From Candidatus Micrarchaeota archaeon (GTDB lineage Archaea; B1Sed10-29): DNA of 21,610 bases. The DNA lies in assembly GCA_964388265.1 (NCBI GenBank), contig CAYLXZ010000007.1:8241-29850 (forward strand), given 5' to 3'. Positions 7,271 through 21,610 of the stretch are shown in pieces. Numbering within the stretch: the stretch's first letter is position 1; each line of letters begins with the position of its first letter. Under the pieces are notes generated by a model. That model saw only the letters and a list, made by a program, of their open reading frames with translations, did no database searches and was not told the origin of the DNA. Both the position numbers and the translations under genes were made by a program.

Positions 7271-7300
7271 TTTTTTGCGAACTTTTTCGTTTAAAAAGTT
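7271..7300 (-). repeat. Hairpin + GCAAAAAA element just 3' of tRNA-Leu
   Basis: AACTTTTT-AAACG-AAAAAGTT-CGCAAAAAA; similar to 7489-7520 in the tRNA-Arg intron. Confidence 0.7.
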
Positions 7301-7303
7301 CTT

Positions 7304-7387
7304 TGCAGGGAAGGGGATTTGAACCCCTGAAGGCACTAAGCCAATGCGCCCTGAACGCATCGCGTTTGACCGCTCCGCCATCCCTGC
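7304..7387 (-). tRNA. tRNA-Leu(CAG)
   Basis: GCAGGGA/TCCCTGC acceptor, ATGCG-TTCAGGG-CGCAT anticodon arm, long variable arm, AGGGG-TTCAAAT-CCCCT T arm. Confidence 0.97.
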
Positions 7388-7417
7388 ATACCTAAGTGTG
7401 TATTAATGTTTTTATAG

Positions 7418-7588: not shown

Positions 7589-8704
7589 TTAAATGTTTCT
7601 GTTTCTCTTCACCGGCTGTTTTTCTCCTGTGAATTCATCTTCTTTTCTGTGGTCTCTTTTTCTCCCTTCGCTGTCTTCTCCATTCCTTTTACTTCTTTCT
7701 AAAGGTATGAATAGTTCTATTAAAGCGCAGAACGGTGATATGAATAGTGTTCCGTAGAGTAGAACAAAGGAACTTATAACTAAACCGGTGATGACAGGTA
7801 GTGCCTGGAGCATTATTCTAAGCATCGGAACCTGTTCGAACATGCTGTTTATAACGGCTTCGGATACTTTATCCTGCATCTGTTCGACTATGGTGGACTG
7901 GATGTTCGTTGCCATCCCTCCTTCTCCGTAGCTTTCTTTGAAGTTGTTATAGGAGTTGTTCATGACGTTATCCTGTTCTTCTTGGGTTAAATCGCTCCAG
8001 GTAAGGTCGTATTTTTCCTGTAGGGATTTATTGTACTCTGGAAGTATCTCTGGTTTGAATATGTTTTCCACGAACCAGTCCCTGGAGACGTTTCCCATTC
8101 CGCCTGTGCTCATGCCGGTTAGGTTCATCTGCTGGGTCTGCGCCTTAGTCACGTTCATGAGAGAGGATTTTAACTGTCCTTGTCTTTGTTGTAGATTGGC
8201 TGATGTCATTAGAAGCCCGACTAAGAAACCACCTATGCTTAGAGTGTATATAGCCTTTTTAGAGAGCCCCCAACCGTATTTGAGTCTTCTGAATTTCCCT
8301 TCTTTTTTCTCTGGGTGGCTTAGGTATGCTTGTAGGGCTACGCCCAGGGCGTAGAAGGAGATCATTAGGAAGAATACTGCCTGGTTCTTGAAGAAAGGGA
8401 ATAGAATGAGCGCAGGGATGAAGGAACCTATGATCCCTGCCATCACTATTTTAACTGAATCGAGTTCTCTGTTAAAGTAGTGTATGGTCATGAGGGCTCC
8501 TGAGAGCACGAAACCAGTTGATATTAGAAGTAGAGCTGTTTGTATGTTAAACAGTTGCATTGCTTTTCCGAGTTGGAAAGCGAAGTCAAAGGATATCCCT
8601 ATTTCTTGATATAGGTATAGCCATACGAGATTCAGTACTGTGAATATTCCTGTGGTTATTCCAAGGCATTTAGCTGAGTTTTTCTTAATCTGTAAGCACC
8701 TCAC
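7589..8704 (-). CDS. Hypothetical polytopic membrane protein with a large helical loop
   Basis: About 6 hydrophobic segments; start overlaps the end of map, so probably co-transcribed. Confidence 0.8.
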   Translation of the reverse strand: MRCLQIKKNSAKCLGITTGIFTVLNLVWLYLYQEIGISFDFAFQLGKAMQLFNIQTALLLISTGFVLSGALMTIHYFNRELDSVKIVMAGIIGSFIPALILFPFFKNQAVFFLMISFYALGVALQAYLSHPEKKEGKFRRLKYGWGLSKKAIYTLSIGGFLVGLLMTSANLQQRQGQLKSSLMNVTKAQTQQMNLTGMSTGGMGNVSRDWFVENIFKPEILPEYNKSLQEKYDLTWSDLTQEEQDNVMNNSYNNFKESYGEGGMATNIQSTIVEQMQDKVSEAVINSMFEQVPMLRIMLQALPVITGLVISSFVLLYGTLFISPFCALIELFIPLERSKRNGEDSEGRKRDHRKEDEFTGEKQPVKRNRNI

Positions 8705-9579: not shown

Positions 9580-11925
9580 TCACGTCCATCTGTTCAGTTC
9601 GGATTGTTTTCCAGCGTATTTTAAATCGTTTTTCTTTACTCCAAGTTCTTTAAGAATCTTCATTGCGGCTGGTATGACCTGGTGGTCTATGTAGTAGTTT
9701 GAGTCGTATCCTTTGCCTTTGAATAGCTCTATGGGTTGTGATCTGTCGGATATTGAGCCTCTTCCTTCGGTTATTATGTATCCTATCACTGTTCCTCCTT
9801 TCACGTTGTATCCTTCGTCTTCGAGTTTTCGTGCTGCGGTTACGTGTGGGCCTATTGATTCGTAGTTATCTATGTTTTTCTTCATCGTGGTGTATATAAC
9901 TAATTTCTCCGGATCTACTTTTTTGTCTTTGAGGTTTTGAACTACTTTTTCCACGTGTTCAACGGCTTTTTCTGGTTTTCCTTCTTCAAGGACTTTTTTA
10001 ATCACTTGTTCTTGGGTTTCTTTAGCTATTTTTGCCCAGTCTCTTCTAACGAGGGCGAATCCTTTTATCTCGAGTTTTCCATCTTCTTTCATCAGCGCGT
10101 ATTTCTTTTTGGCTGCTTTCCCGCTTTTCTTTGACACGAACACTCCTCTTGGGTAGTATCCTTCGTACTCGAGCTTCATCTTACCTGGAAGGTCGTTGTT
10201 TATATCTTCCAGCCAGTTTTCCAGGTCTTCTTTTGACTGAGAATCTTTTAATTTCAAGAAAACGGAATCTGTGTCTCCGTAGATGACGTTAAAGCCGTTT
10301 TCCTCGGCTTTTTCAATCGTGTTCTTTATGTATTGCCTGCCCCACCCTGTTATCGTTGCTTCTGCGCATTCTCTGGAGTACCATCGGGCTCTTGCGTATC
10401 CGAGGTACCCTATGACTGAGTTCGCTATTATCTTCAATGCCTGTGACCTGTATTCGAGCCTTTCTTTTTCTTTTTCATCGTCTGTTTCCTTTATCTTTTC
10501 TTTGACTTTGTCTCTGGTTTCTATGAGTTTTTCAACTACTTGTGGAACCAGTGATCCTCCTTTTTTATGGAATTTCTGTCCGGTTGGCGCTTTGTAGTGT
10601 TCTTTCTCGCATTCTTCATCTTCACAGAGCGTGTGGGGCCCTATGTTCTTCGCTACTACTATCGTGGGGTAAAGTGACTTGAAGTCACAGACTACGAGGT
10701 CTTCGTGCAGCCCTGTTTCCGGTGTCTTGACGTAGGCTCCTTTAACTGGGTTTCTCTGCCTTTTCTTCACTTTTTCTTTGTACGGTCTTCTTGGGATGAG
10801 TATGTCTTTTTTGAATGCTTCTCTGCTCAGTAGCCATTCCACCATGTTCGAGGCACTTTGCCTGGATACATCGTACGGTGGAAGACCTATTAGTCGTGTT
10901 AGTTCTTTGTATAGGGGTATTACTTCTTCTGATACTTGGTATGCGGCTATTGAATCTTCGAGGTTATATTTTTTGAGTTCTTCGAGTTTTTCTCCGCCTT
11001 CTTCCCAGTATTCGTATATCTGTTTGGAGGTTAGATCTGTTTTTTCTTCTCCTGTGAACTCTTCGTACACGGTTTCCAGGGAGTTTTTCGGTAGGTTGAG
11101 CGATCCTATGCCTGATAGGAAGTCCACGGCTTTGTAGGTGTCGAGGTGCATTCTTCCGAACATCTTGGCGCTTGATGCGAATCCTCTTTTCCTGATTTTC
11201 GCTTCTGATCCATCGGTTCCTAAGTCGAGTTTTAATCCGTGTTCCTGGGCTCTGTGTTCGAGGTACGGCCAGTCGAACCTCGTGCCGTTGTAGGTTTCTA
11301 TGATGTTTTTGTCTTCTTTTTTGATTTTTTCGATAAGTTTCTCTATGGTTTCTTTCTCCGTTCCTTGTTCCTCTGTCCAGTGGAATACTTTTTCTTCGTC
11401 TTCGTCTTTGTAGGATATGAGGGTTATCGGGTCTTCATCTGGATCTGGTTTTCCTTTGGCGTGTACTTCGAGGTCGAAAGCGCATTTGCTGAGTTCTGGA
11501 ACTTCTTTTTCTCTTTCGGGCAGTTCGTTGATCTCTTTGAGTGTGTTGTCCTTGGTTTCCATGTCGTAGTAGGTTAGGGGGTAGAGGTCTTTGTCTATTA
11601 GGTACCGGTACCTGTAGGGTATTGTATGTTCTCTGGGTTCTCCGATCTCTTTTTCTTCTTCTGCGTATTTTTTAACCGCGTTCAGTTCACTTGGGTCTTT
11701 TAGAATGATTTTAAGTGCTTTTCCCTGTTTTTTATTGACTTCTTCGAGTTTCTCCACTTCTTCTCTTTCTTCGAGTGTTTTTTTAGCTTTTTCCATGTTT
11801 TCTGGGAGTAGGTAGAAGTAGTGGTTGAATCTCTGTTTAAGTATGCGGTTTTCCTGTCCGATTACCTGGGTTTTAACGGTGTTTGGTTCTTCGCCTTTAT
11901 CTATGTCGAGTATGTAGTTTTCCAT
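9580..11925 (-). CDS. polB: Family B DNA polymerase (archaeal PolB3-type)
   Basis: Exo motifs FDLE, YNG..FD, YNLED; Pol motifs DFKSLYP, KIIANS, YGDTDS, KKKYA; C-terminal PIP-like QSELNRW; no intein. Confidence 0.97.
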   Translation of the reverse strand: MENYILDIDKGEEPNTVKTQVIGQENRILKQRFNHYFYLLPENMEKAKKTLEEREEVEKLEEVNKKQGKALKIILKDPSELNAVKKYAEEEKEIGEPREHTIPYRYRYLIDKDLYPLTYYDMETKDNTLKEINELPEREKEVPELSKCAFDLEVHAKGKPDPDEDPITLISYKDEDEEKVFHWTEEQGTEKETIEKLIEKIKKEDKNIIETYNGTRFDWPYLEHRAQEHGLKLDLGTDGSEAKIRKRGFASSAKMFGRMHLDTYKAVDFLSGIGSLNLPKNSLETVYEEFTGEEKTDLTSKQIYEYWEEGGEKLEELKKYNLEDSIAAYQVSEEVIPLYKELTRLIGLPPYDVSRQSASNMVEWLLSREAFKKDILIPRRPYKEKVKKRQRNPVKGAYVKTPETGLHEDLVVCDFKSLYPTIVVAKNIGPHTLCEDEECEKEHYKAPTGQKFHKKGGSLVPQVVEKLIETRDKVKEKIKETDDEKEKERLEYRSQALKIIANSVIGYLGYARARWYSRECAEATITGWGRQYIKNTIEKAEENGFNVIYGDTDSVFLKLKDSQSKEDLENWLEDINNDLPGKMKLEYEGYYPRGVFVSKKSGKAAKKKYALMKEDGKLEIKGFALVRRDWAKIAKETQEQVIKKVLEEGKPEKAVEHVEKVVQNLKDKKVDPEKLVIYTTMKKNIDNYESIGPHVTAARKLEDEGYNVKGGTVIGYIITEGRGSISDRSQPIELFKGKGYDSNYYIDHQVIPAAMKILKELGVKKNDLKYAGKQSELNRWT

Positions 11926-11999: not shown

Positions 12000-12455
12000 A
12001 TGGCTCGACGAGATGATGAAGGTAAAGGCGGTGGAAGAGTAGGGGTTCTTAACTCCAAGATGAGCGTCATAGCTCAGAGGCTTAAAGTCCTGGATAAGAA
12101 TGTTAAGGTACTGGCTAAGACAGTTACCCATAACAACAACCGGCTTAAGAAACTTAAGAAAGAAGTAGATCAACTTAAAGAAGAAGGCGTAGAGACAGGT
12201 GGATCCGAATCCACGGGCGGATCCGCTGAACTTGAAGATAAAGTTGATGAATTATCAGATAAAGTTGAATCTATAAAGGAGACAGTGGAGGGTAATAAGG
12301 AAGGTTTAGAGGATTTTGAGGATCAGGTAAGTGAATTTGAGTATGTTATCGATTCTATTAATCCTGTTGAGTACTTGACTTCCGAGGAGATAAGTGAATT
12401 GATCGATGAGAAGATAGAGAAGGCTAAGAAGGAAATGGAAGGCACTGAATCTTAG
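12000..12455 (+). CDS. Coiled-coil hypothetical protein
   Basis: Two heptad stretches separated by a G/S/E linker; C-terminal YVIDSINPVEY motif; GGTGA RBS. Confidence 0.85.
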   Translation: MARRDDEGKGGGRVGVLNSKMSVIAQRLKVLDKNVKVLAKTVTHNNNRLKKLKKEVDQLKEEGVETGGSESTGGSAELEDKVDELSDKVESIKETVEGNKEGLEDFEDQVSEFEYVIDSINPVEYLTSEEISELIDEKIEKAKKEMEGTES

Positions 12456-12471
12456 GGTTTGAAGCATTGGC

Positions 12472-13956
12472 TTAATCTTGAGTTAGGTAGGGTCTGAGGT
12501 TTACTCTGTATGGTTTTCCCTCTTTTTTCTTCACTGCTACTTGGTTGTCTTTTACGAAGTCCTGTCTTAGGGTTGTTTCTTTAAGGAGAGGTTGGTATAT
12601 ATTTATCTCGTTTTTGGCTCCTACTGCGTATCCTATTCCGTATGAATTGGCGTTGGTGAGGATTTCGAGTATGTTTTCGTTCAGTCTTTCAGTTGGCTTT
12701 GCGGGTGTGTATGTTTTGGCGTGTGGTAGGATTACTAATGCTCTTAGTCTTTTTTGGAATCCTTCTTGTTTGTTTTCTTCGTAGAGTGTTTTGAGGAATG
12801 AGTATGCGAAGGCTCTTTTAAGGTTTGATGGGAGTGCGGAGGTGTCTATTCTTATCACGGTTCCCATTGACTGTAGGTAGGCGGATACCATTGATCTTAG
12901 ATCCATTTCTCCGTCCATGAAGTCGGGGTAGATTTGGTTGAGTACCTTCATCCATCTTACTCCTCTGTATTTGTGGAAGGTTTTCACGTCTTCTTTTACC
13001 GCGGTTAATTCTTCTTCTATGTCTTTCAGGGATTTCAGTTTCTTGTCGTTGCTTATTATTTCGTCTATCATCTCTGCGGTTTTTTTACCTGCGTATTCGT
13101 TTTCTTCGTCGGGTACGTTGATCACTTCTCTGAATGCTTTCTTGTCAAGTTGATTTAGATCTATCTGTATCTCTCCTGGCTTTAGGTTTCGTACGGGTAG
13201 GCCTATGGGCTGTAGTCCTGGGTATTCTTGGTGTGGGAACTTGGGGTTCGGTGAGCTTAGTGACTTGAATCTGTTTGAATCGTCGAATATGACTCCGTTG
13301 ACTCCTGCGAGCACGCAGTTTTCGAGGAGTAGGTGTATGGCTTTCTGTCTTTGTTTTTCTTCTCCTATTATGGTTGTGGCTTTGAATTTGTCTATTGTTT
13401 CCTCTGCTTTTAATCCGTCTTGTTTTTTACCGAGCAGTAGCTTGCCTTTCTCTGGTTCTATTTCTTTTTCTTCTTTTCCGGTGAGGAGCGCTGGAAGTAG
13501 GACAGGTCTTTTGAATAGTAGGGATTCTTCTTCTTCGCTGATGTTTTTCAGTTCGGTTAGGTCTACTTGGTATTTCTTGCTGAGTTCTTGGAGTTTCTTC
13601 TCTTTTTCATGGACGTTTTGGAACATTTCCTCGACTTTTGCGTCGATTTTCTTTGTCTCTGGCTTGGTGTACTGTGGGCCTGTGGATAGTGAGAAGAATC
13701 TGCCTTTCTGTGTGGGGTAGTTTTCTTCGAATAGGAGTGAGTACCCTCCGAGCTCTGTGTTCAACTTCGATACATCACCAGCTACTACGAAGTACTTGTT
13801 CAGAAACAGGACGAAGCCCTGTAGCTCTCCATCTTCTCGATCCTCCACCGCTGTTAATGTATGGCTCTCTGGGTTCTTGAACAAGTGAACCTCTGTACCG
13901 GACCATTCGCCTTTGAAGAGCCTTTGCCACGGCCCCCTTGGAAAGTCAAGTTCCAT
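12472..13956 (-). CDS. HerA/FtsK/VirB4-like P-loop protein with degenerate Walker motifs
   Basis: Motif order LLLGK...TTIIG[EEKQRQK]A...LLEN...VIFD...LVIL[PHA]...YGIGYAVGA matches HerA-family layout; ATG at 13956 with GGTGA RBS. Confidence 0.7.
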   Translation of the reverse strand: MELDFPRGPWQRLFKGEWSGTEVHLFKNPESHTLTAVEDREDGELQGFVLFLNKYFVVAGDVSKLNTELGGYSLLFEENYPTQKGRFFSLSTGPQYTKPETKKIDAKVEEMFQNVHEKEKKLQELSKKYQVDLTELKNISEEEESLLFKRPVLLPALLTGKEEKEIEPEKGKLLLGKKQDGLKAEETIDKFKATTIIGEEKQRQKAIHLLLENCVLAGVNGVIFDDSNRFKSLSSPNPKFPHQEYPGLQPIGLPVRNLKPGEIQIDLNQLDKKAFREVINVPDEENEYAGKKTAEMIDEIISNDKKLKSLKDIEEELTAVKEDVKTFHKYRGVRWMKVLNQIYPDFMDGEMDLRSMVSAYLQSMGTVIRIDTSALPSNLKRAFAYSFLKTLYEENKQEGFQKRLRALVILPHAKTYTPAKPTERLNENILEILTNANSYGIGYAVGAKNEINIYQPLLKETTLRQDFVKDNQVAVKKKEGKPYRVNLRPYLTQD

Positions 13957-14030
13957 TCTTTCACCGTCTGGTAAATTAAAAAACTTTATATTAATAAACC
14001 TTCCTTGCTTTAACAACTTAGGGGGATACC

Positions 14031-14567
14031 ATGAATGACGAAGATGTCGAGAACATAAAAGAGATAGTTACCTCGATGAAGGACTCCGGAGCATCGGACG
14101 AAGAGATCAAGAACAACCTGAAGCAGATGGATTTCTCCGAAGAACAGATAGAGAAAGTTCTGAATCAAATAGAAAGCGAAGGAGAACCGGAGGCCGATGA
14201 ATTAGAGGAACAGGTTAAGAAGGTTAGCGAAGGAATGGAGCCTATAACCGAGAAAATCGAGGAAATAGACCAGAAAGCAGAGGAAAGTCAAGAGAAACAT
14301 GAATCCGTTGAAGAGAAGGTGAAAGAGGTTCAGGGAACAGCTGAAGAACATAAACAGAAACTTGAAGGCGTGGAAGAGAAAGCGGAAGAAGCTGCTGAAG
14401 AAGTTAAAAAAGTCAAGGAAAACCATGAAGAGGCTCATGGAGTGAGCAATCAGAAGATATACCAAGAAGTAAGGGATCTGAAGAACCAGGTCAGTGCATT
14501 GAAAGATATAAACGAAGATATACTTAAAACTAATAAGAAACTGCTCAGAGAACTTTCTGAGGAGTAA
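14031..14567 (+). CDS. Acidic coiled-coil hypothetical protein with a small N-terminal helical domain
   Basis: MKDSGASDEEIKNNLKQMDFSEEQI N-terminus, then long E/K heptads; GGGGG RBS; divergent from the ATPase-like gene. Confidence 0.85.
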   Translation: MNDEDVENIKEIVTSMKDSGASDEEIKNNLKQMDFSEEQIEKVLNQIESEGEPEADELEEQVKKVSEGMEPITEKIEEIDQKAEESQEKHESVEEKVKEVQGTAEEHKQKLEGVEEKAEEAAEEVKKVKENHEEAHGVSNQKIYQEVRDLKNQVSALKDINEDILKTNKKLLRELSEE

Positions 14568-14572
14568 GAGAG

Positions 14573-14821
14573 TCAGTCATCATCTTTTTCTTTTAATTTG
14601 ATTGGAAGCCCTTTGAACACTTTATCCAGTATAGATAGGTCTCCTGACTTGAGTTTACCTGTGTCGGCTTCCTGGTAGATATCAAGTTCTTCAGGGTATT
14701 CACCGTGTTCGAGCGGTAGGTCGGCTATCGGATCCGGAAGTATGGGGTGCTGCTCCATCTTCTTTTTCTTCTTAGGTGGACGTGACTGTATGACCACGTG
14801 TTTAGTCTTTTTTTCACTCAT
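14573..14821 (-). CDS. Small soluble Pro-rich protein (last gene of the RHH operon)
   Basis: ATG directly abuts the upstream TAG; YPEELDI resembles the motif shared by the three upstream genes. Confidence 0.75.
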   Translation of the reverse strand: MSEKKTKHVVIQSRPPKKKKKMEQHPILPDPIADLPLEHGEYPEELDIYQEADTGKLKSGDLSILDKVFKGLPIKLKEKDDD

Positions 14822-15175
14822 CTAATCACCTTTTATCTTCTTACCAAGCCACTTAGCCGTTGGTCCAAGGGTTCCTTTCAGCGCTTTCGCTGTGTGTGAT
14901 TCTTTAGCGTCTTTATCCGGACTTACTTTCATGGTTATGTCATCGGGAATCGTATAGTCTGGTTTTCTCTTGGACTCTATCTCGATGGGATCCATTACTT
15001 GGGCTTGGGAACTGGATTTGGAGGGTTCTTTAGAGCTGTTGAAGGTTTTGGATATTCCTGTTCCTATTCCTGCGATTAGGGCGATTCCTCCGATTGCCTT
15101 TGCGAGGAATATGTATCCTCCTATGTAGAGGAAGCCTGCTACGGCGATCATTGTAAGGACGTTTCCGGTATCCAT
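14822..15175 (-). CDS. Small membrane protein, paralog family A
   Basis: N-terminal hydrophobic hairpin, Ser linker, VMDPIEI...IPDDITMKVSP, basic amphipathic tail; AGGTG RBS. Confidence 0.85.
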   Translation of the reverse strand: MDTGNVLTMIAVAGFLYIGGYIFLAKAIGGIALIAGIGTGISKTFNSSKEPSKSSSQAQVMDPIEIESKRKPDYTIPDDITMKVSPDKDAKESHTAKALKGTLGPTAKWLGKKIKGD

Positions 15176-15184
15176 TTTTCACAC

Positions 15185-15529
15185 CTATTTAAGCATCTTG
15201 AATAGGCCTTTGGCAGCTCCTTTAACCATTATTCCGGCGCTGTTCACCATGTCTCCGGCCTTCACTCTTTTCTTTTTACCGTCCGGGTAGACGCTTATTT
15301 CCCCGTCTTCTGGGTATAGGTTAGGTGGGTCTCCTGTGTCTTCGTATACTACGGGGTGGAGGACTGTTTCTTCTTCTCCGGACCCTGAATTTCTTTTGCT
15401 GGAGCTGTTTCCTGTTGAGTACATCATCAGCGCTACTGCGGCTGTTAGGCCTCCGACTATCACTATTGATTCGAGGTAGATTCCTGCGAATACCGCTGTT
15501 AGTGCTACGATAGCGGTTTCAATCTTCAT
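15185..15529 (-). CDS. Small membrane protein, paralog family A
   Basis: Same layout, VLHPVVY...YPEDGEISVYP; ATG at 15529 overlaps the upstream stop. Confidence 0.85.
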   Translation of the reverse strand: MKIETAIVALTAVFAGIYLESIVIVGGLTAAVALMMYSTGNSSSKRNSGSGEEETVLHPVVYEDTGDPPNLYPEDGEISVYPDGKKKRVKAGDMVNSAGIMVKGAAKGLFKMLK

Positions 15530-15860
15530 CCGATCCACCCCCTATCTTTTTCGTGGCTGCCCCTATGCATTTTCCTAGGTAGCCTAAGCCTTTACCTAGA
15601 TCTGCTTTTGCTCCGGTTTTGTGTGGGCTGAGGTTTATGCTCATGTCGTCTGGGTATATGGAGTCGGGGCCGTCGTACTCTCTCTTTACTTTTATGGGTT
15701 GGACCTTGACGTTGGATGAGTTGTTTGGGGAAGAGGTTTTTTCTTTGGTTAGGAGGTGGGTTAGGCCTGTGGCTATTCCTGTGAGTAGGGCTATCTGTGT
15801 GAGTCCGAGGTATAGCATGGTTAGGGCGGATGCTCCGAGTATTAGGGTGGATTTATTCAT
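15519..15860 (-). CDS. Small membrane protein, paralog family A
   Basis: Same layout, VKVQPIKV...YPDDMSINLSP; ATG at 15860 with GGAGGTGG RBS. Confidence 0.85.
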   Translation of the reverse strand: MNKSTLILGASALTMLYLGLTQIALLTGIATGLTHLLTKEKTSSPNNSSNVKVQPIKVKREYDGPDSIYPDDMSINLSPHKTGAKADLGKGLGYLGKCIGAATKKIGGGSDED

Positions 15861-15999
15861 CTGTTCCACCTCCTTTTGAGGTGAGTGTTCTTATTGCTGA
15901 TCTTACGGCTTCGGAGCGGGTTGGATATGTTCCTTCGGCTACTTCTTTGTCGAGTCTTTTTTTAAGTTCTTTGGTTAGTCTTACTTGTACGGGATCCAT
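15853..15999 (-). CDS. Ribbon-helix-helix (CopG/CdrS-like) transcriptional regulator, 48 aa, absent from the ORF track
   Basis: MDPVQVRLTKELKKRLDKEVAEGTYPTRSEAVRSAIRTLTSKGGGTDE*; GAGGAG RBS; stop overlaps the next ATG. Confidence 0.88.
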   Translation of the reverse strand: MDPVQVRLTKELKKRLDKEVAEGTYPTRSEAVRSAIRTLTSKGGGTDE

Positions 16000-16019
16000 T
16001 TTGATCTCCTCGGAAATGC

Positions 16020-16082
16020 GTAACTACTTATCTGTAGTTACACATTACTGTTGTAGTTTACCTGCACTACGCTTTATAAATA
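16020..16082 (-). promoter_or_regulatory. Promoter and palindromic operator of the RHH operon
   Basis: GTAACTAC-ttatct-GTAGTTAC (16020-16041), further TAC/GTA half-sites, and minus-strand TATTTATAAA at 16073-16082. Confidence 0.65.
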
Positions 16083-16119
16083 TTACGTTTTTGCAGGGGG
16101 GGTAACTAAAAAGAATCCC

Positions 16120-16410
16120 TTACCCTCCGAGGAGTTGAGCCATCTCTGCGGAGTAGTATTCCTGTGACTTGCGTTTCCGCCTTTCTCTAAGTAGAATTAG
16201 AACAGCGAGCAGGGCTAAGGCTACGAACCAGTACTCCTGCAGTCCGAATATTTCTAAGAAAGCTATGCTACCTACTGCTACTATGAATATAGATATGCTT
16301 CTAAGAAGTATCAGTATTAGGATTAATCCTCCTATGAATAGCCAGGTTATCCCTTGTGTGTATGCCATGAAGGATATTAATAGTAGTACGATGGCTGAGA
16401 AGGGATCCAT
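16120..16410 (-). CDS. Small, very hydrophobic membrane protein (3-4 short TM) with a basic tail
   Basis: 96 aa; starts 4 nt after the upstream stop. Confidence 0.85.
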   Translation of the reverse strand: MDPFSAIVLLLISFMAYTQGITWLFIGGLILILILLRSISIFIVAVGSIAFLEIFGLQEYWFVALALLAVLILLRERRKRKSQEYYSAEMAQLLGG

Positions 16411-16414
16411 TTTA

Positions 16415-16657
16415 TCAGTCCTCGTCGTCGCTTTCGGCCATTGCTTCTGCGAATCCTTTGAATACTGGGTATCCGAAGAAGAGTATTACTGCTATTATGA
16501 GGAGTTCGTAGTGGCTGAAGAATGTTAGGTAGGCTATTACGGCTGCGAGTATTACTCCAAGTGGCTTGTTGTCGAGTATGTCGGTGCTCCATTTGAGGAG
16601 GAATATGAATGCTATTATTGTGAATGCGAGTCTTAGGTCGCTCCATAGCGCGGACAT
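16415..16657 (-). CDS. Small membrane protein, paralog family B
   Basis: IFLLKWSTDILDNKPLGVILAAVIAYLTF; GGTGA RBS. Confidence 0.85.
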   Translation of the reverse strand: MSALWSDLRLAFTIIAFIFLLKWSTDILDNKPLGVILAAVIAYLTFFSHYELLIIAVILFFGYPVFKGFAEAMAESDDED

Positions 16658-16716
16658 TTATTCACCTTGTTTATATTTATTCACTTGTAATTTATATCCC
16701 ATGGTATTCAAGGGGG

Positions 16717-17022
16717 TTAGTCTCCTTTTATTCCGAAGATTATTATGGATGATATGAATCCGAATCCGATGCTTCCGGCTATCCAGTAGAACATGAATAG
16801 GGCTCCGATCACGTACCATAGTCTGTAGAATAGGTAGATTAGGAATCCTGCGGTTACGTATTTAATTGGCTTGCTTCTTATTCTTTTGCTGACCATGGCG
16901 TAGATTTCTATTGAGACTGCGAAGAAGAAAACCCATTTGAACTGTGGTAGGAGCTTTGCAAGGATTAGTGGAAGGGATATTATGAATCCGAATATCAGTG
17001 CTTTTAGTAGGTTCGCGTTCAT
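16717..17022 (-). CDS. Small membrane protein, probable paralog family B
   Basis: IEIYAMVSKRIRSKPIKYVTAGFLIYLF; GGGTGA RBS. Confidence 0.8.
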   Translation of the reverse strand: MNANLLKALIFGFIISLPLILAKLLPQFKWVFFFAVSIEIYAMVSKRIRSKPIKYVTAGFLIYLFYRLWYVIGALFMFYWIAGSIGFGFISSIIIFGIKGD

Positions 17023-17033
17023 GTTTGTTCACC

Positions 17034-17351
17034 CTATGCTTTCCTCGCTTTCTTCACTTTGGATTTTTTCTTTTTAGCTTCTTCTGCACCGGCTCCTCCT
17101 CCGAGTGCGAGGTCGAACATCAGGTTCAGAGGCCCGTGTGGCAGTACGACTATGAGTAGGATTATAGGTATCCATAGTCCAGCCCATCTGAACAGTAGGA
17201 GGTATGATAGTACGAGTGTAATTAATGTGACCGCGGTTGAATCTGTTATTCTTCTTCTAACCCAGTGTATTATGAAAACGAGGCACAGTAATCTCACTCC
17301 AAGTAACACCAGGTCTATTAACCCGAGGCTCGGCATCAGTGATTCCAGCAT
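17034..17351 (-). CDS. Small membrane protein, paralog family B
   Basis: VFIIHWVRRRITDSTAVTLITLVLSYLLL; Lys-rich tail. Confidence 0.85.
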   Translation of the reverse strand: MLESLMPSLGLIDLVLLGVRLLCLVFIIHWVRRRITDSTAVTLITLVLSYLLLFRWAGLWIPIILLIVVLPHGPLNLMFDLALGGGAGAEEAKKKKSKVKKARKA

Positions 17352-17398: not shown

Positions 17399-20300
17399 TT
17401 ATGACATTTCTTCAACGTCAAGCCCTTCGAATCTGTAGCCCCATCCTTCGTGGTCCGTTTTTCCACCTGTGCCTTCGGCTCCGAGTTCTGTGTCGAGTGT
17501 GTAGTGCCATTCACAGAAGTTATCCTTGTTTACGTTACAGTTTCTTCCTAGTCCAAATGCTAACCTGTGTCTGTTTTCCCCTGGGTTAACTAGGAATATA
17601 TCGTTTTCCTCTCTGTCTTTGTCCCAATCTGTGGCAGTGAAGTCGAGTTTTCGAGTTTGGCCTGGTTGTTGTTTATCATCGATTTTATTGCTTTTCTTAC
17701 TATTACATCCTGGTCCTGTGCATCTTTTCCCGTATCTTAACATGCTTTTTGTAGGGATTTCTGCTATTTTTTCCAGGTTATCTTCTTTGATGTCCAGTAC
17801 TATCCCGCTTTCTCCTCTTGCTGTTATAAATATTTCTCTATGGTCATCTGGCTTGTTGTCGAAGTCTCCTATGGTTGCTGAAGGCTCGTAGTAATGTTTA
17901 AAGTCCATGATATCGCCCGATTCAAATCCCCCATTTTGATCATCTACAAAGGATGGATTGGTGTAGAGGGATTTTATAGGGTTTGCTATGATTGAATTGC
18001 CCTTTGTTCTCACCAGGATAGCGTCATCATCTGGGTTCCTTGGATCTTCTAATAGATCCCCTATCTCGTTGACTGACCCCAGTTTTCCCGCTATCTTCGT
18101 GTTTGATGGGTTCTCTCCAACGTTCGGGCTGTGGGGAAGCCCGGTTACATTATGCTTGTGGATGTTATCTGTTGCTAGATTGTCGTTGAGCAGTACCTGG
18201 TGTAAGTCACCGTATTTACCTATTAATCCGGCGGAGGTCTTGTATTCCTTATCTAATAACCACCATTGATCTTTTCCGTCTTTTGTTTTTTCCCAGGTTT
18301 CGCATATTCTATCGTTATTGTAATCGCAGTTTTCACCGACTATGTATATTACTCTTTCTCCTCCTCCGGTTCGGTCTATGGTATTGAACATTATGAGATC
18401 GTTCTTCTTTCCATCGTTATCTCCATCGAAGAGCTTCATGAATTGTTGATTGTCATCGATGTTGTTCAGTGGCCCGTTAAACTGTTCCTTGAGATTTTTC
18501 TCTATTCGGAAGGTTTTGATCTTACAGCTTAATTTGTTGTCTATGATATCTCCGTTTTGAGTTCCCTGTGCTTCGTAGGGTAACGTGCAGTTGGAGAATA
18601 TCTTCACTTTATTCCTATGTTTTATTTTATCGGTTCCAAAACCTGCAGATTGTCTTATGGCTATTTCTCCTCCTGCTATGAATGTTCGGCCACCTCCACT
18701 TGTGTCTCCGCAGATTCTCGCTGGTGTTTTGCCTTTGTTTTGGGTTATTCTTTCTATGTATACCTCTGAATCTTCTTCTTTGTATGTTATTATGTAGTCG
18801 TTTCCGCTTACTATTCCGTCTCCTTCTACGTCTATGTCGTCGAATGACCCGTGGGTTAATCCACATAGATGATTTTCTTTGATGTGGTATATTCTGGAGA
18901 AACCGTCACTGTTCTCGATGGTTTCGTGGAGTTTTTCGCCTGTAATCTCTTCATTAACTTTATATATTGTTGCCCCTGTTCTTTTGTAATCGCCTGGTGG
19001 TTGTTCCTCATGCCATTTATTCAGCATAGTTCTTACTTCGTCTGCTGACCCGAATAGGTATAGGCCTGTTCTTGTTTTCTTTCCTATTGGTTGTTCTGGG
19101 ATTTTGAATGGGTAGCTGTTTTCGTAGGAAGTTAGGTATTTATTGAATTTTTCTTGGTAGATTCCTCCGCTCGCGCTTACTCCTGCTACTACAGCTGCTT
19201 TTCCTATTTTACCTGTTCGTTTTGTTGTGAATGCTCCAGTCTCTTCTGGTAGGCTAAGCTCTTCTATGAGGAACCCCTCAACAGAGTCTTCTATTGATCC
19301 TGAGGAGGTGTTCCAGTATATGTTAGGTGCTTTATCTGGCATTTTCAGCTTCCCATTTTCTATCATGAATAGCTTGGTAGCTGTCTTATCATCGTCTGGG
19401 TTCACGAGCCCTGTGAGGTTGCTGAGGAAGCTTTTCAGGTCTTGGTTGTCCGCGTAGTGTAGGGTAAGTGTTTCACCGCCTGTGGATAGGTAGGTTTTTT
19501 CTCCTTTATCGAGATCTCCTTCGATTTTAAAGGAAGATTCTGCTATATCATCTGCAGTCCATTCTGACTTATCTAAATCGTACTGTGCGCTGATCAGATT
19601 TTCTACATCTTCTTTGAACTCACCTGCGTTTATACCTGTTTGGAATGCTGGCAGGTTGCTTTCCTTGCTGAGCGTTAGTAGTAGTTGGAAGTTTTGTATT
19701 CCATTTGTCTTTATTTTTGTTTTTTCTGCGATTGATATGTTTATAGGGGAGTTTTCATTTGGTGAGGTGAGGGTTACATTGTATTCTCCTGCTCCGCGGG
19801 GGAACCCGTTCTTCACCACTATATCGCATTCGTCTCTGACATTATCGTCAGTACAGGTTTCTGGAATACTATTTATATCATTGAGGTAGTCTTTGAAATT
19901 GGATTTTGTAGGTTTTTGATTAACCAGCATGACTTCGCGGGTTGTTTCTCCTTCCCAGTTTTCCCCTGCTTTGAGGTAGGTTTTCAGGTTGTTGGTGAGT
20001 ATGTCTATGGTGCAGAATTGGCTGCTGCAGTCTGGGTTTGCATCGTTGTAACCGGCTATTTCAAGCGGTGCGAAGTAAGCTCCTTGGAGCTGTGATTCAT
20101 CTTTTTCTGTAACCATGAGGCTTCTGTTCCATGTTCTTTCCACGCTTATATATCTGTTGTCTTCATTTGCCTTTTCAAAGGTTCCTGTGATACCGAGAGT
20201 TAATTCAATAAAGTTGGGTATTCCCGCGGCATATGTAAGACCCACGTATCTTCCGGTTTCTCCATAACCTCCGTATGTGCCTCTTATATCTATATCCAGA

Positions 20301-21610
20301 TTATCTTCATAGTTTCCATTTCGGTATCCTTTTATATTCAACCAGGATCCATCTTCACTTAGGGACGGTACTTCACATCCTTCTTTTGTTTCAAAGCCGA
20401 TGCGTTTTTCGTCTTCTTCGTTCGGATTTATTTCTGAGAGGCCAGCGGTTTTCGGGTCAATGCAGTTTGTTAGGTTGAATGTTTTGCTTTCTATACTGTA
20501 TTCATCGCTTTCCACGTCTATTGTGATTGTTTTTGGGTTTTCTTCAAGTTCTTCAGGGTTACTGGTATCTAAACTACATTTGAAGTGGTCTATGGTGGTC
20601 TGTGCTCCTACTTCTTCTTCTATCACGCATTCGCCTGAAGTGTCTCCTATTCCTGACCCACTTAATTTTATTTTATCTATACCGGAACTGTAGTTTGCCG
20701 GTCCTCCAGCTAATTTGTTTTTTATCCTTATTCCTGTTTCTGTGTCGAGTACGTGGAACTTATCTTTTCCTATATTGATTTCGGCAGGAGTTACTCCTTG
20801 TACGTTGAAGCCGAAGTACGTGTCGTCATCCTGTGTTAGTTCGGATGTTAAGTATGCGTCGCTGCTTCTTACGACTTTTCCTCTGAACTCTATCTCTACG
20901 CTGTCCCCTGTTTCCAATTTTTTAGGTTCTTCGACGAATGAAACGGTTCCCTTGTACTCGTCTGATTGGGAGCATCCGCCGTATTCTTGCCCTATTTCTT
21001 CGCCGTCTCTCTTCATTTTCTCGCATTTAACTATCTCGTGTTTGCTGTTTATCTTAAGCTCTCCACCTAAGTCCTTGTTTCCGTAGTTCTGTATCTCTAA
21101 GGTTAATTTCACTTTGTCTCCTGGCTTGACGTTATCCTTGGTTGTTGGTACCCATTCACCGTCTTCGTCTTTGGTTTCCTTGATCTTAGTGAAGGATATG
21201 CCTTCTACTTCTGTCACGTTGATTCTGTAGGGTTTCTTTCCGGCTGCCCATTCGTTAGGTGGGTTTGCGATTATGTAGGTTTGTCCACCTTCTTTTGCGT
21301 TTGCTACGACGGTTGTTTCGGAGGTTTCTCCCGCAGGAAGGGCTTTTTCTTCGAAGGATACTCCTATCGTGCCTTTATCGCAGGTCATTCTACTTATATC
21401 TCCTTCTTTGTCCCAGCTTTCGCTTTCATCGCAGTTGAAGTCAGTTTTTTCAGTGTTCTCTATTGTCAGTTGATTTGTGTCTAAGTCTTCGTTTTTGTTG
21501 TTTGTAACTTCTATTTTTAGTTTTATTTCGTCTCCCTGCATTACACCGTATTTTTCATGGTCTTCGGAGCTGTAATCTTTCCATTCACCGGTTTCAGGAT
21601 CCTTTATCAT
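17399..21610 (-). CDS. Very large extracellular/surface protein, probably 5'-partial
   Basis: Frame open to the window edge; two Ig/CARDB-like units (QGDEIKLKIEVTN, PGDKVKLTLEIQN), many Cys pairs, DxDxD loops, no C-terminal TM. Confidence 0.85.
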   Translation of the reverse strand: MIKDPETGEWKDYSSEDHEKYGVMQGDEIKLKIEVTNNKNEDLDTNQLTIENTEKTDFNCDESESWDKEGDISRMTCDKGTIGVSFEEKALPAGETSETTVVANAKEGGQTYIIANPPNEWAAGKKPYRINVTEVEGISFTKIKETKDEDGEWVPTTKDNVKPGDKVKLTLEIQNYGNKDLGGELKINSKHEIVKCEKMKRDGEEIGQEYGGCSQSDEYKGTVSFVEEPKKLETGDSVEIEFRGKVVRSSDAYLTSELTQDDDTYFGFNVQGVTPAEINIGKDKFHVLDTETGIRIKNKLAGGPANYSSGIDKIKLSGSGIGDTSGECVIEEEVGAQTTIDHFKCSLDTSNPEELEENPKTITIDVESDEYSIESKTFNLTNCIDPKTAGLSEINPNEEDEKRIGFETKEGCEVPSLSEDGSWLNIKGYRNGNYEDNLDIDIRGTYGGYGETGRYVGLTYAAGIPNFIELTLGITGTFEKANEDNRYISVERTWNRSLMVTEKDESQLQGAYFAPLEIAGYNDANPDCSSQFCTIDILTNNLKTYLKAGENWEGETTREVMLVNQKPTKSNFKDYLNDINSIPETCTDDNVRDECDIVVKNGFPRGAGEYNVTLTSPNENSPINISIAEKTKIKTNGIQNFQLLLTLSKESNLPAFQTGINAGEFKEDVENLISAQYDLDKSEWTADDIAESSFKIEGDLDKGEKTYLSTGGETLTLHYADNQDLKSFLSNLTGLVNPDDDKTATKLFMIENGKLKMPDKAPNIYWNTSSGSIEDSVEGFLIEELSLPEETGAFTTKRTGKIGKAAVVAGVSASGGIYQEKFNKYLTSYENSYPFKIPEQPIGKKTRTGLYLFGSADEVRTMLNKWHEEQPPGDYKRTGATIYKVNEEITGEKLHETIENSDGFSRIYHIKENHLCGLTHGSFDDIDVEGDGIVSGNDYIITYKEEDSEVYIERITQNKGKTPARICGDTSGGGRTFIAGGEIAIRQSAGFGTDKIKHRNKVKIFSNCTLPYEAQGTQNGDIIDNKLSCKIKTFRIEKNLKEQFNGPLNNIDDNQQFMKLFDGDNDGKKNDLIMFNTIDRTGGGERVIYIVGENCDYNNDRICETWEKTKDGKDQWWLLDKEYKTSAGLIGKYGDLHQVLLNDNLATDNIHKHNVTGLPHSPNVGENPSNTKIAGKLGSVNEIGDLLEDPRNPDDDAILVRTKGNSIIANPIKSLYTNPSFVDDQNGGFESGDIMDFKHYYEPSATIGDFDNKPDDHREIFITARGESGIVLDIKEDNLEKIAEIPTKSMLRYGKRCTGPGCNSKKSNKIDDKQQPGQTRKLDFTATDWDKDREENDIFLVNPGENRHRLAFGLGRNCNVNKDNFCEWHYTLDTELGAEGTGGKTDHEGWGYRFEGLDVEEMS

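Follow-up and report, generated by a model that had tools for sequence, protein, structure and literature searches.

A conserved gene block with a HerA-fold protein lacking Walker motifs, a candidate accessory module of the type IV pilus machine in two DPANN phyla

The window analyzed here is a stretch of 21,610 nucleotides from Candidatus Micrarchaeota archaeon B1Sed10-29 (assembly GCA_964388265.1, contig CAYLXZ010000007.1, positions 8,241 to 29,850 of the forward strand), in which a reading of the letters without database searches (the sequence-only reading) had pointed to twelve tightly packed genes between polB and a giant surface-protein gene. As shown in Table 1, all twelve open reading frames (ORFs) were found where that reading had placed them. 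They encode two coiled-coil proteins (CC1 and CC2), a degenerate HerA/VirB4-fold protein (pHerA), a ribbon-helix-helix (RHH) regulator and eight small membrane-type proteins (T1-T4 and A1-A4), of which the largest has 117 amino acids (aa) and three helices at most. Since CC1 and CC2 are oriented opposite to the other genes, which gives converging and diverging pairs, the block is not one operon. Among the twelve proteins, only RHH passes a family cut-off in Pfam and NCBIfam (Pfam RHH_1, 30.9 bits versus 20.5), and a scan of named genomes with single block proteins gave no matches. The giant ORF has 1403 aa in the window, where the contig end truncates it, and its counterpart on contig C12 of the same assembly has 2949 aa.

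Table 1. Features of the block and its borders (positions are those of the window)
Feature	Position	Strand	Remarks
polB	9580..11925	-	conserved downstream border, followed by map; not considered a machine part
CC1, 151-aa soluble coiled-coil protein	12000..12455	+	conserved C-terminal motif E-x-K-Y-x-x-D-x-x-N-P-x-x-F/Y-V-T
pHerA, 494 aa, HerA/VirB4-fold protein	12472..13956	-	ATG at 13956; fold match; Walker A/B missing
CC2, 178 aa	14031..14567	+	N-terminal three-helix motif M-x-x-x-G-x-S-x-x-x-I-x-x-x-L-x-x-x-G, linker, coiled coil
A4, 82 aa, fourth family-A position	14573..14821	-	membrane hairpin lost
A3	14822..15175	-	N-terminal hydrophobic hairpin and tail P-I-x-I-E...P-Y/F-x-I-P
A2	15185..15538	-	paralog of A1 and A3
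A1	15519..15869	-	paralog of A2 and A3; probable start, ATG at 15860
RHH, 48-aa ribbon-helix-helix regulator	15853..15999	-	Pfam RHH_1
Perfect palindrome GTAACTAC-N6-GTAGTTAC	16020..16041	.	lies between the promoter and the start of RHH; probably an autoregulatory operator
TATA box (TTTATAAA) with A-rich BRE-like element upstream	16073..16090	-	internal promoter for RHH-A1-A4; kept in 5/5 family loci
T4, three-helix membrane protein	16120..16410	-	membrane part related to family A
T3, three-helix membrane protein	16415..16657	-	best conserved of the T1-T3 paralogs
T2	16717..17022	-	paralog of T1 and T3; window copy without class III (prepilin-type) signal
T1	17034..17351	-	paralog of T2 and T3; directly behind the giant surface-protein gene
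Giant surface-protein gene, 3' part	17399..21610	-	cut by contig end; in relatives such genes join the block to the pilus operon

The block is not a chance arrangement, since its genes are found again, identically ordered, in further genomes. With about 30 genomes, all in one class and deposited as Diapherotrites or Micrarchaeota, the phylum of the window is a small one; the second phylum is Iainarchaeota, going by the names of its homologs. For the order counts, 20 loci were fetched per phylum with long contigs preferred, and a duplicate (L037) was removed. Of 18 own-phylum loci, 16 showed the full order T1-T2-T3-T4-A1-A2-A3-CC2<-pHerA-CC1< (arrowheads, opposite orientation), and the other two are cut by contig ends. 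Iainarchaeota, whose loci mostly carry one A-like gene, kept T3-T4..CC2<-pHerA in all 21 loci; pHerA-CC1< was seen in 19 of these and T1-T4 in 16. In these two phyla, the synteny and co-occurrence that the sequence-only reading had proposed to check were found. This order is maintained despite protein identities of 19-30% between the two phyla. Among own-phylum genomes with a completeness of 75% or more, 25 of 26 had pHerA, as did 79 of 81 Iainarchaeota genomes (47/47 among the best ones); as a single query it had matches in 27 of 30 relatives, and it is single-copy except in split or doubled assemblies. Three more genomes labelled Micrarchaeota carry pHerA, one of which (G170) has the same order with divergent T genes. 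T3 was found in none of 22 outside archaeal genomes, and the N-terminal domain of pHerA in none of 33 other archaea in a search without a positive control; the phylum of G052, a negative control, gave just ordinary HerA-type C-terminal matches (25 of 41 genomes). Taken together, these results show that the block is a real conserved gene set, near-universal in two DPANN phyla.

The assembly of the window (G000; 726 kb, 82% complete) carries a second copy of map, polB, the block and the giant gene together with the start of a pilus ATPase gene on contig C12, 60-79% identical to the first (polB 79%, map 72%, and 72% DNA identity over 8.9 kb). A true duplication was rejected, because polB and map also occur twice, at 72-79%, and contigs C22 and C2 show the same kind of doubling. 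C12 is thus likely a contig of a co-binned sister species, despite a reported contamination of 1.9%, and was treated as a relative in comparisons. In G015, the block and the ATPase are present twice with identical scores (C1 and C8), a likely assembly duplication, and pHerA of G022 (C31:56803-58249) has a frameshift near its start, either an error or a pseudogene.

The predicted model of pHerA is confident (predicted local distance difference test, pLDDT, 84.6), and structure comparison shows that residues 165-495 share the HerA-FtsK motor fold of the HerA/VirB4/FtsK superfamily ATPases (4d2i, 4ag5, 7o42), with Z 24.5 to HerA 4d2i (root-mean-square deviation, rmsd, 3.7; 283 aligned) and Z 21.1 to VirB4 4ag5 (rmsd 3.7; 286 aligned). 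Unlike these ATPases, pHerA has no Walker motifs, and its N-terminal domain has no clear structural match. None of the 36 copies has Walker A (GxxxxGK[ST]) or Walker B (hhhhDE) at the aligned place, although three contain a GxxxxGK[ST] string elsewhere, and the degenerate HerA/VirB4-like protein noticed from the letters is therefore confirmed in both its fold and its lost motifs. The N-terminal domain is a 160-aa alpha/beta domain (pLDDT 90.7 when modelled alone) whose best match, at Z 7.8, is a YbjN/secretion-chaperone fold; no neighbour reached Z 8, and no Foldseek match was found at E ≤ 0.001. The barrel that forms the N-terminus of HerA itself appeared in neither structural list for this domain, an absence that does not exclude a barrel. 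No match to Pfam VirB4 was found among 39 pHerA members, and neither nurA, mre11 or rad50 nor genes of a type IV secretion system (T4SS) lie beside pHerA. As for the active HerA paralog elsewhere that the sequence-only reading had suggested looking for, G000 has three DUF87 matches over the cut-off, whereas G011, a 91% complete relative that carries the block in full, yielded no HerA/DUF87 ATPase exceeding it. On this ground, the need for an active HerA partner was rejected. Two long frames of G000 were also seen: a 3,789-codon open frame with a DUF87/HerA-type match (C2, about 26000-34900; L098:11025-19901) would encode a giant protein joined to a translocase-type domain, and a frame of 1,124 codons (C11:11834-12445; L099), whose DUF87 match passes the cut-off, apparently contains an intein.

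Upstream of the giant genes, beyond the window, lie an exosortase-family gene, a gene for a 760-aa T2SSE ATPase (Pfam T2SSE, 71.8 bits), a TadC-like platform gene and pilin-like genes. This pilus ATPase and pHerA share a contig in 31 cases from both phyla, and in 27 of these the ATPase lay upstream at no more than 66 kb. In the own phylum this holds for 12 of 12 same-contig genomes at 11.5-44.7 kb, with ten more genomes having the two on different contigs, and in Iainarchaeota for 15 of 19 at 36-66 kb, with four on other contigs. The gap in G051 and G080 contains pilins, TadC, the ATPase, a sortase and three or four giant genes, along with some unrelated genes in G051, and genes for TadC, pilin-like proteins, an exosortase-family protein and giant surface proteins likewise lie in the gap of G011, G012 and G015. 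The TadC-like gene (680-800 aa; T2SSF 20 bits, under the cut-off of 25.2) directly follows the ATPase gene, and pilin-like genes starting with K/R-G and a hydrophobic stretch follow TadC; the TadC and pilins of G000 itself are on contig C3. Against a reference distance of ten genes, the CC genes are about 10-12 genes from the pilus genes in compact loci and farther in Iainarchaeota. The block thus forms the outer end of a type IV pilus supercluster and belongs with the DPANN ATPase-TadC locus, so that in part it can be traced to a system of known type. What stands of the undescribed membrane machine first proposed is a conserved envelope-associated set that includes a HerA/VirB4 fold without Walker motifs.

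Several features of these loci were observed alongside. The giant genes of G051 and G080 (L100, L134, L137, L138) are three or four in tandem, encode 2,250-2,850 aa and have a common N-terminal motif, Y-x-x-x-E-D/E-K-Y/W-Y-x-x-x-D...P-I/V-Y-x-V-I-D-P, which precedes the first membrane helix and is possibly a targeting signal. The pilus ATPase frame has 1,280-1,360 codons in G085:C13, G091:C4, G111:C19 and G070:C14, with an insertion of 500-600 residues at profile position 483-488 that is likely an intein. In G037 and G060 (L227:7777-12010 and L228:7469-11826), a divergent pilus ATPase-TadC operon lies opposite a MinD-like gene and a gene whose product has the N-terminal motif of CC2; this lineage, too, thus shows a layout resembling Tad loci.

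The CC1 and CC2 profiles also detect ATPase-adjacent genes at E values of 1e-7 to 1e-16, and such genes lie beside the same ATPase in other DPANN phyla, Undinarchaeota included. CC1 was found in 27 of 28 genomes of the phylum of G050. Of 29 outside archaea, eight have this type of ATPase (E < 1e-200), and these are the same eight that have CC1; the two genes are unlinked in G034, the one genome covered from its phylum, and in G038. CC1 lay nearby in 31 of 80 named ATPase loci, in 22 of them adjacent and divergent. Of these 31 loci, 25 also have CC2 and a family of membrane paralogs, termed M, which converges on CC2 in 23. In the branch of the window, the genes that converge on CC2, in the position that M has elsewhere, are those of the T/A set, and pHerA lies between CC2 and CC1. 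M and T/A exclude each other: M was found in all eight outside DPANN genomes, whereas of 30 genomes with T genes one gave a single weak, internal match to M. Since no homology between M and T was detected, the two are positional counterparts only, and their replacement of one another rests on position and distribution.

This link between coiled-coil genes and the ATPase is already published. Hamm et al. 2024 (PMC11291902) describe, in cluster-2 DPANN and Undinarchaeota, a pair of loci that combine CpaF and TadC with coiled-coil proteins (CCPs), and the coiled-coil proteins of the pilus loci are reported as expressed in Ca. Nha. antarcticus. The loci described here resemble them in the ATPase type, TadC and the two coiled-coil genes, putative counterparts of NAR1_03220/NAR1_01690; our CC1 profile also ranks sigma-1 (6GAO) high, a structure named there too. 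They differ from those loci in that CC1 and CC2 lie 12-66 kb from the ATPase, a HerA-fold gene without Walker motifs lies between them, and T/A replaces M. No cluster-1 lineage was found named in the available text of PMC11291902, whose Supplementary Dataset 13, listing CCP homologs in 569 species, may contain cluster-1 hits. New here are the HerA-fold protein without Walker motifs between CC1 and CC2, the T/A set at the M position and a prepilin-type signal in T2; neither pHerA nor the T/A proteins turned up in a literature search that left out most subscription papers.

Of the two paralogous membrane families proposed from the letters, the cores hold and the margins do not. T1-T3 are paralogs (hhalign 94.6-98.3%) and A1-A3 are clear paralogs; however, T4 is outside the T family (2% versus T3), its membrane part resembling family A instead (86% and 70%), and A4 has no transmembrane stretch in the window, while the gene at the same position in other families has a membrane hairpin. 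Outside the window's family, T2 starts with K/R-G and a hydrophobic helix in 26 of 30 copies (the script counted 27, of which L041 was an internal false hit and was removed). This is the motif of the local pilin-like genes, and it is rare in the other proteins (T1 4/28, T3 1/35, T4 3/33, A1-A3 at most one of 12-14). A prepilin peptidase (Peptidase_A24 over the cut-off) was present in five of five genomes, in G000 on C1 and C4. The T3 profile matched no solved pilin in the PDB by sequence.

Taken together, these results suggest that the block encodes the accessory module of the type IV pilus machine that DPANN cells of the Iainarchaeota-related phyla have, a reading to which we give a probability of about 0.6 on the strength of gene content and position. 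Its parts are likely the two coiled-coil proteins, the HerA-fold protein without Walker motifs and the eight small membrane-type proteins, and the pilus machine probably serves host attachment in these symbiotic-type cells. The archaellum has coiled-coil scaffolds, ArlCDE and ArlX, and a RecA-fold helper, ArlH. By analogy with ArlCDE/ArlX, CC1 and CC2 would form a cytoplasmic scaffold around the motor, and the pilus ATPase would supply the energy that drives assembly. pHerA may act as a ring without catalytic function that bridges this scaffold and the tails which the A proteins extend into the cytoplasm. A membrane collar at the filament base may be built from T1-T4 together with the hairpins of family A, and T2 would be trimmed by the prepilin peptidase. 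The whole machine would display pilins and giant sortase-linked surface proteins for attachment to the host; in the window's family, an autoregulated RHH may have taken over control of the A genes. The archaeal type IV filament systems (Epd/system 1 and the archaellum; PMC13705601) likewise have an ATPase, a platform, class III pilins and a prepilin peptidase, all of which occur in these genomes, and none of the twelve proteins fits a described accessory family.

A number of observations weigh against this reading. The support is all genomic, and related genomes are not independent. In four of 19 Iainarchaeota same-contig genomes, the ATPase is 96-124 kb off, in two of these downstream, and 49 of the 80 ATPase loci have no CC1 in the stretch examined, 13 of which are too short upstream. 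M and T showed no homology by hhalign (at most 3%) or HMMER with a reversed control. Compared with four ArlC sequences of the archaellum, CC1 and CC2 reach just 12% and 17% in hhalign, and FlaC_arch/ArlC is the only named family among 30 Atlas hits of CC1 (0.83). The T2 signal is found in none of the five copies of the window's family, the window's own included. polB and map are kept in the same order as well, and the tie of the block to polB is as tight as that to the pilus genes. Four loci retain T3-T4-CC2-pHerA without T1, T2 and the giant genes, and it may be the giant proteins, not the filament, that T1, T2, T3 and pHerA serve.

That last point leads to a separate complex for the export or anchoring of the giant surface proteins, in which the T/A proteins and pHerA would hold or thread proteins of 2,300-2,900 aa and the pilus operon would be a co-regulated neighbour. 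T1 directly follows the giant gene in most loci, the four loci without T1 and T2 are detached from the giants, the T/A set and pHerA are confined to lineages with these giants, and the nearest structures to the N-terminal domain of pHerA are secretion-chaperone folds, weak matches at Z 6-7.8. However, CC1 and CC2 adjoin the pilus ATPase in DPANN without these giants, and T2 has a pilin-type signal, which makes such a complex unlikely as the explanation of the block.

We consider it a rather slim prospect that the block is a domesticated conduit of the T4SS or Ced type, with T1-T3 as VirB2-like pilins, pHerA as a shrunken VirB4 scaffold and the pilus ATPase as a VirB11-like motor. Like the Ced/Ted DNA-import systems (PMC9905601), the block combines small membrane proteins with a chromosomal HerA/VirB4-fold gene, and CedA1, according to the same source, was once considered a plain membrane protein and later seen as a pilin. 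The C-terminal domain of pHerA matches VirB4 4ag5 as given above, its Atlas neighbours include TrwB and CedB clusters, and its N-terminal domain gave its longest listed alignment with VirB4 7o42 (124 of 163 residues, rmsd 3.5); yet that alignment has a Z of 5.7, which is background level, and the C-terminal match to HerA is the higher one. Unlike Ced/Ted, the block has no channel of CedA size and lies in a pilus-operon context, its ATPase is predicted to be inactive, and its T proteins have three helices, not two. The absence of any gene for a six- to seven-helix CedA/VirB6 protein in the block, of a solved-pilin match for T3, and of an active HerA/VirB4-type ATPase over the cut-off in G011 also weakens the Ced/T4SS-like reading first proposed.

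It is improbable that surface genes, CC1/CC2, pHerA and polB are simply a conserved neighbourhood held together by slow rearrangement. The mixed orientations, the retained order of polB and map and the long syntenic runs in DPANN genomes would fit such a neighbourhood. Against it, the order holds at the low identities seen over two phyla, G062-type loci keep CC2-pHerA-T3-T4 together with polB and CC1 gone, and the layout of CC2 with a membrane set is seen again with a different membrane family.

CdrS is linked to ftsZ, and a division role under a CdrS-like regulator had been suggested from the letters. The best NCBIfam match of RHH is indeed CdrS (E 1.7e-7), with 31.1 bits against a cut-off of 100, and within the block RHH is limited to the window's family. 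RHH was rejected as a CdrS because it is far below the cut-off, is itself a family-specific insert in the block and is not near ftsZ. The palindrome is perfect in three of five family loci, has one mismatch in one and is missing in one; a genome-wide search found no other site with fewer than three mismatches except the C12 copy, and the two ftsZ genes (C13 and C5) have neither an adjacent RHH nor the operator. The CdrS and division link is thus unsupported, since the score is low and RHH, confined to one family, lies with its operator away from both ftsZ genes. A cell-division or membrane-remodelling complex is accordingly very improbable, even though core single-copy genes lie beside polB and the gene adjoining CC1 in G034 is one that we take to be SepF-like, because the conserved block contains no division gene.

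Two further features were observed in the window: a 371-aa membrane protein without a family (7589-8704, minus strand), which follows polB-map in many loci of both phyla, and a putative tRNA-like sequence (about 7290-7390, minus strand).

With the block as a pilus accessory module, a broader history can be put forward tentatively, with the odds against it. There may have been one ancient DPANN host-attachment machine on a type IV pilus motor, whose basal body was rebuilt in the Iainarchaeota branch: a captured HerA/VirB4 translocase would have become an inactive ring scaffold, and a new small membrane set, including one prepilin-processed polytopic subunit, would have replaced the collar of other DPANN. 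According to Sivabalasarma and Albers 2026 (PMC13705601), filament components of DPANN are scattered and their subsystem identity is mostly ambiguous, and tomography of DPANN shows barrel-like docking structures without gene assignments (PMC11329633). If the proposed history is true, the machine would combine parts of a pilus with parts of a translocase, and its genes would be candidates for encoding the attachment structures that cryo-tomography shows. The block itself, as the probable cluster-1 form of the DPANN pilus locus, links the cluster-1 and cluster-2 loci through CC1 and CC2 and provides, for the study of DPANN host attachment, a list of parts found in nearly all genomes of two phyla.

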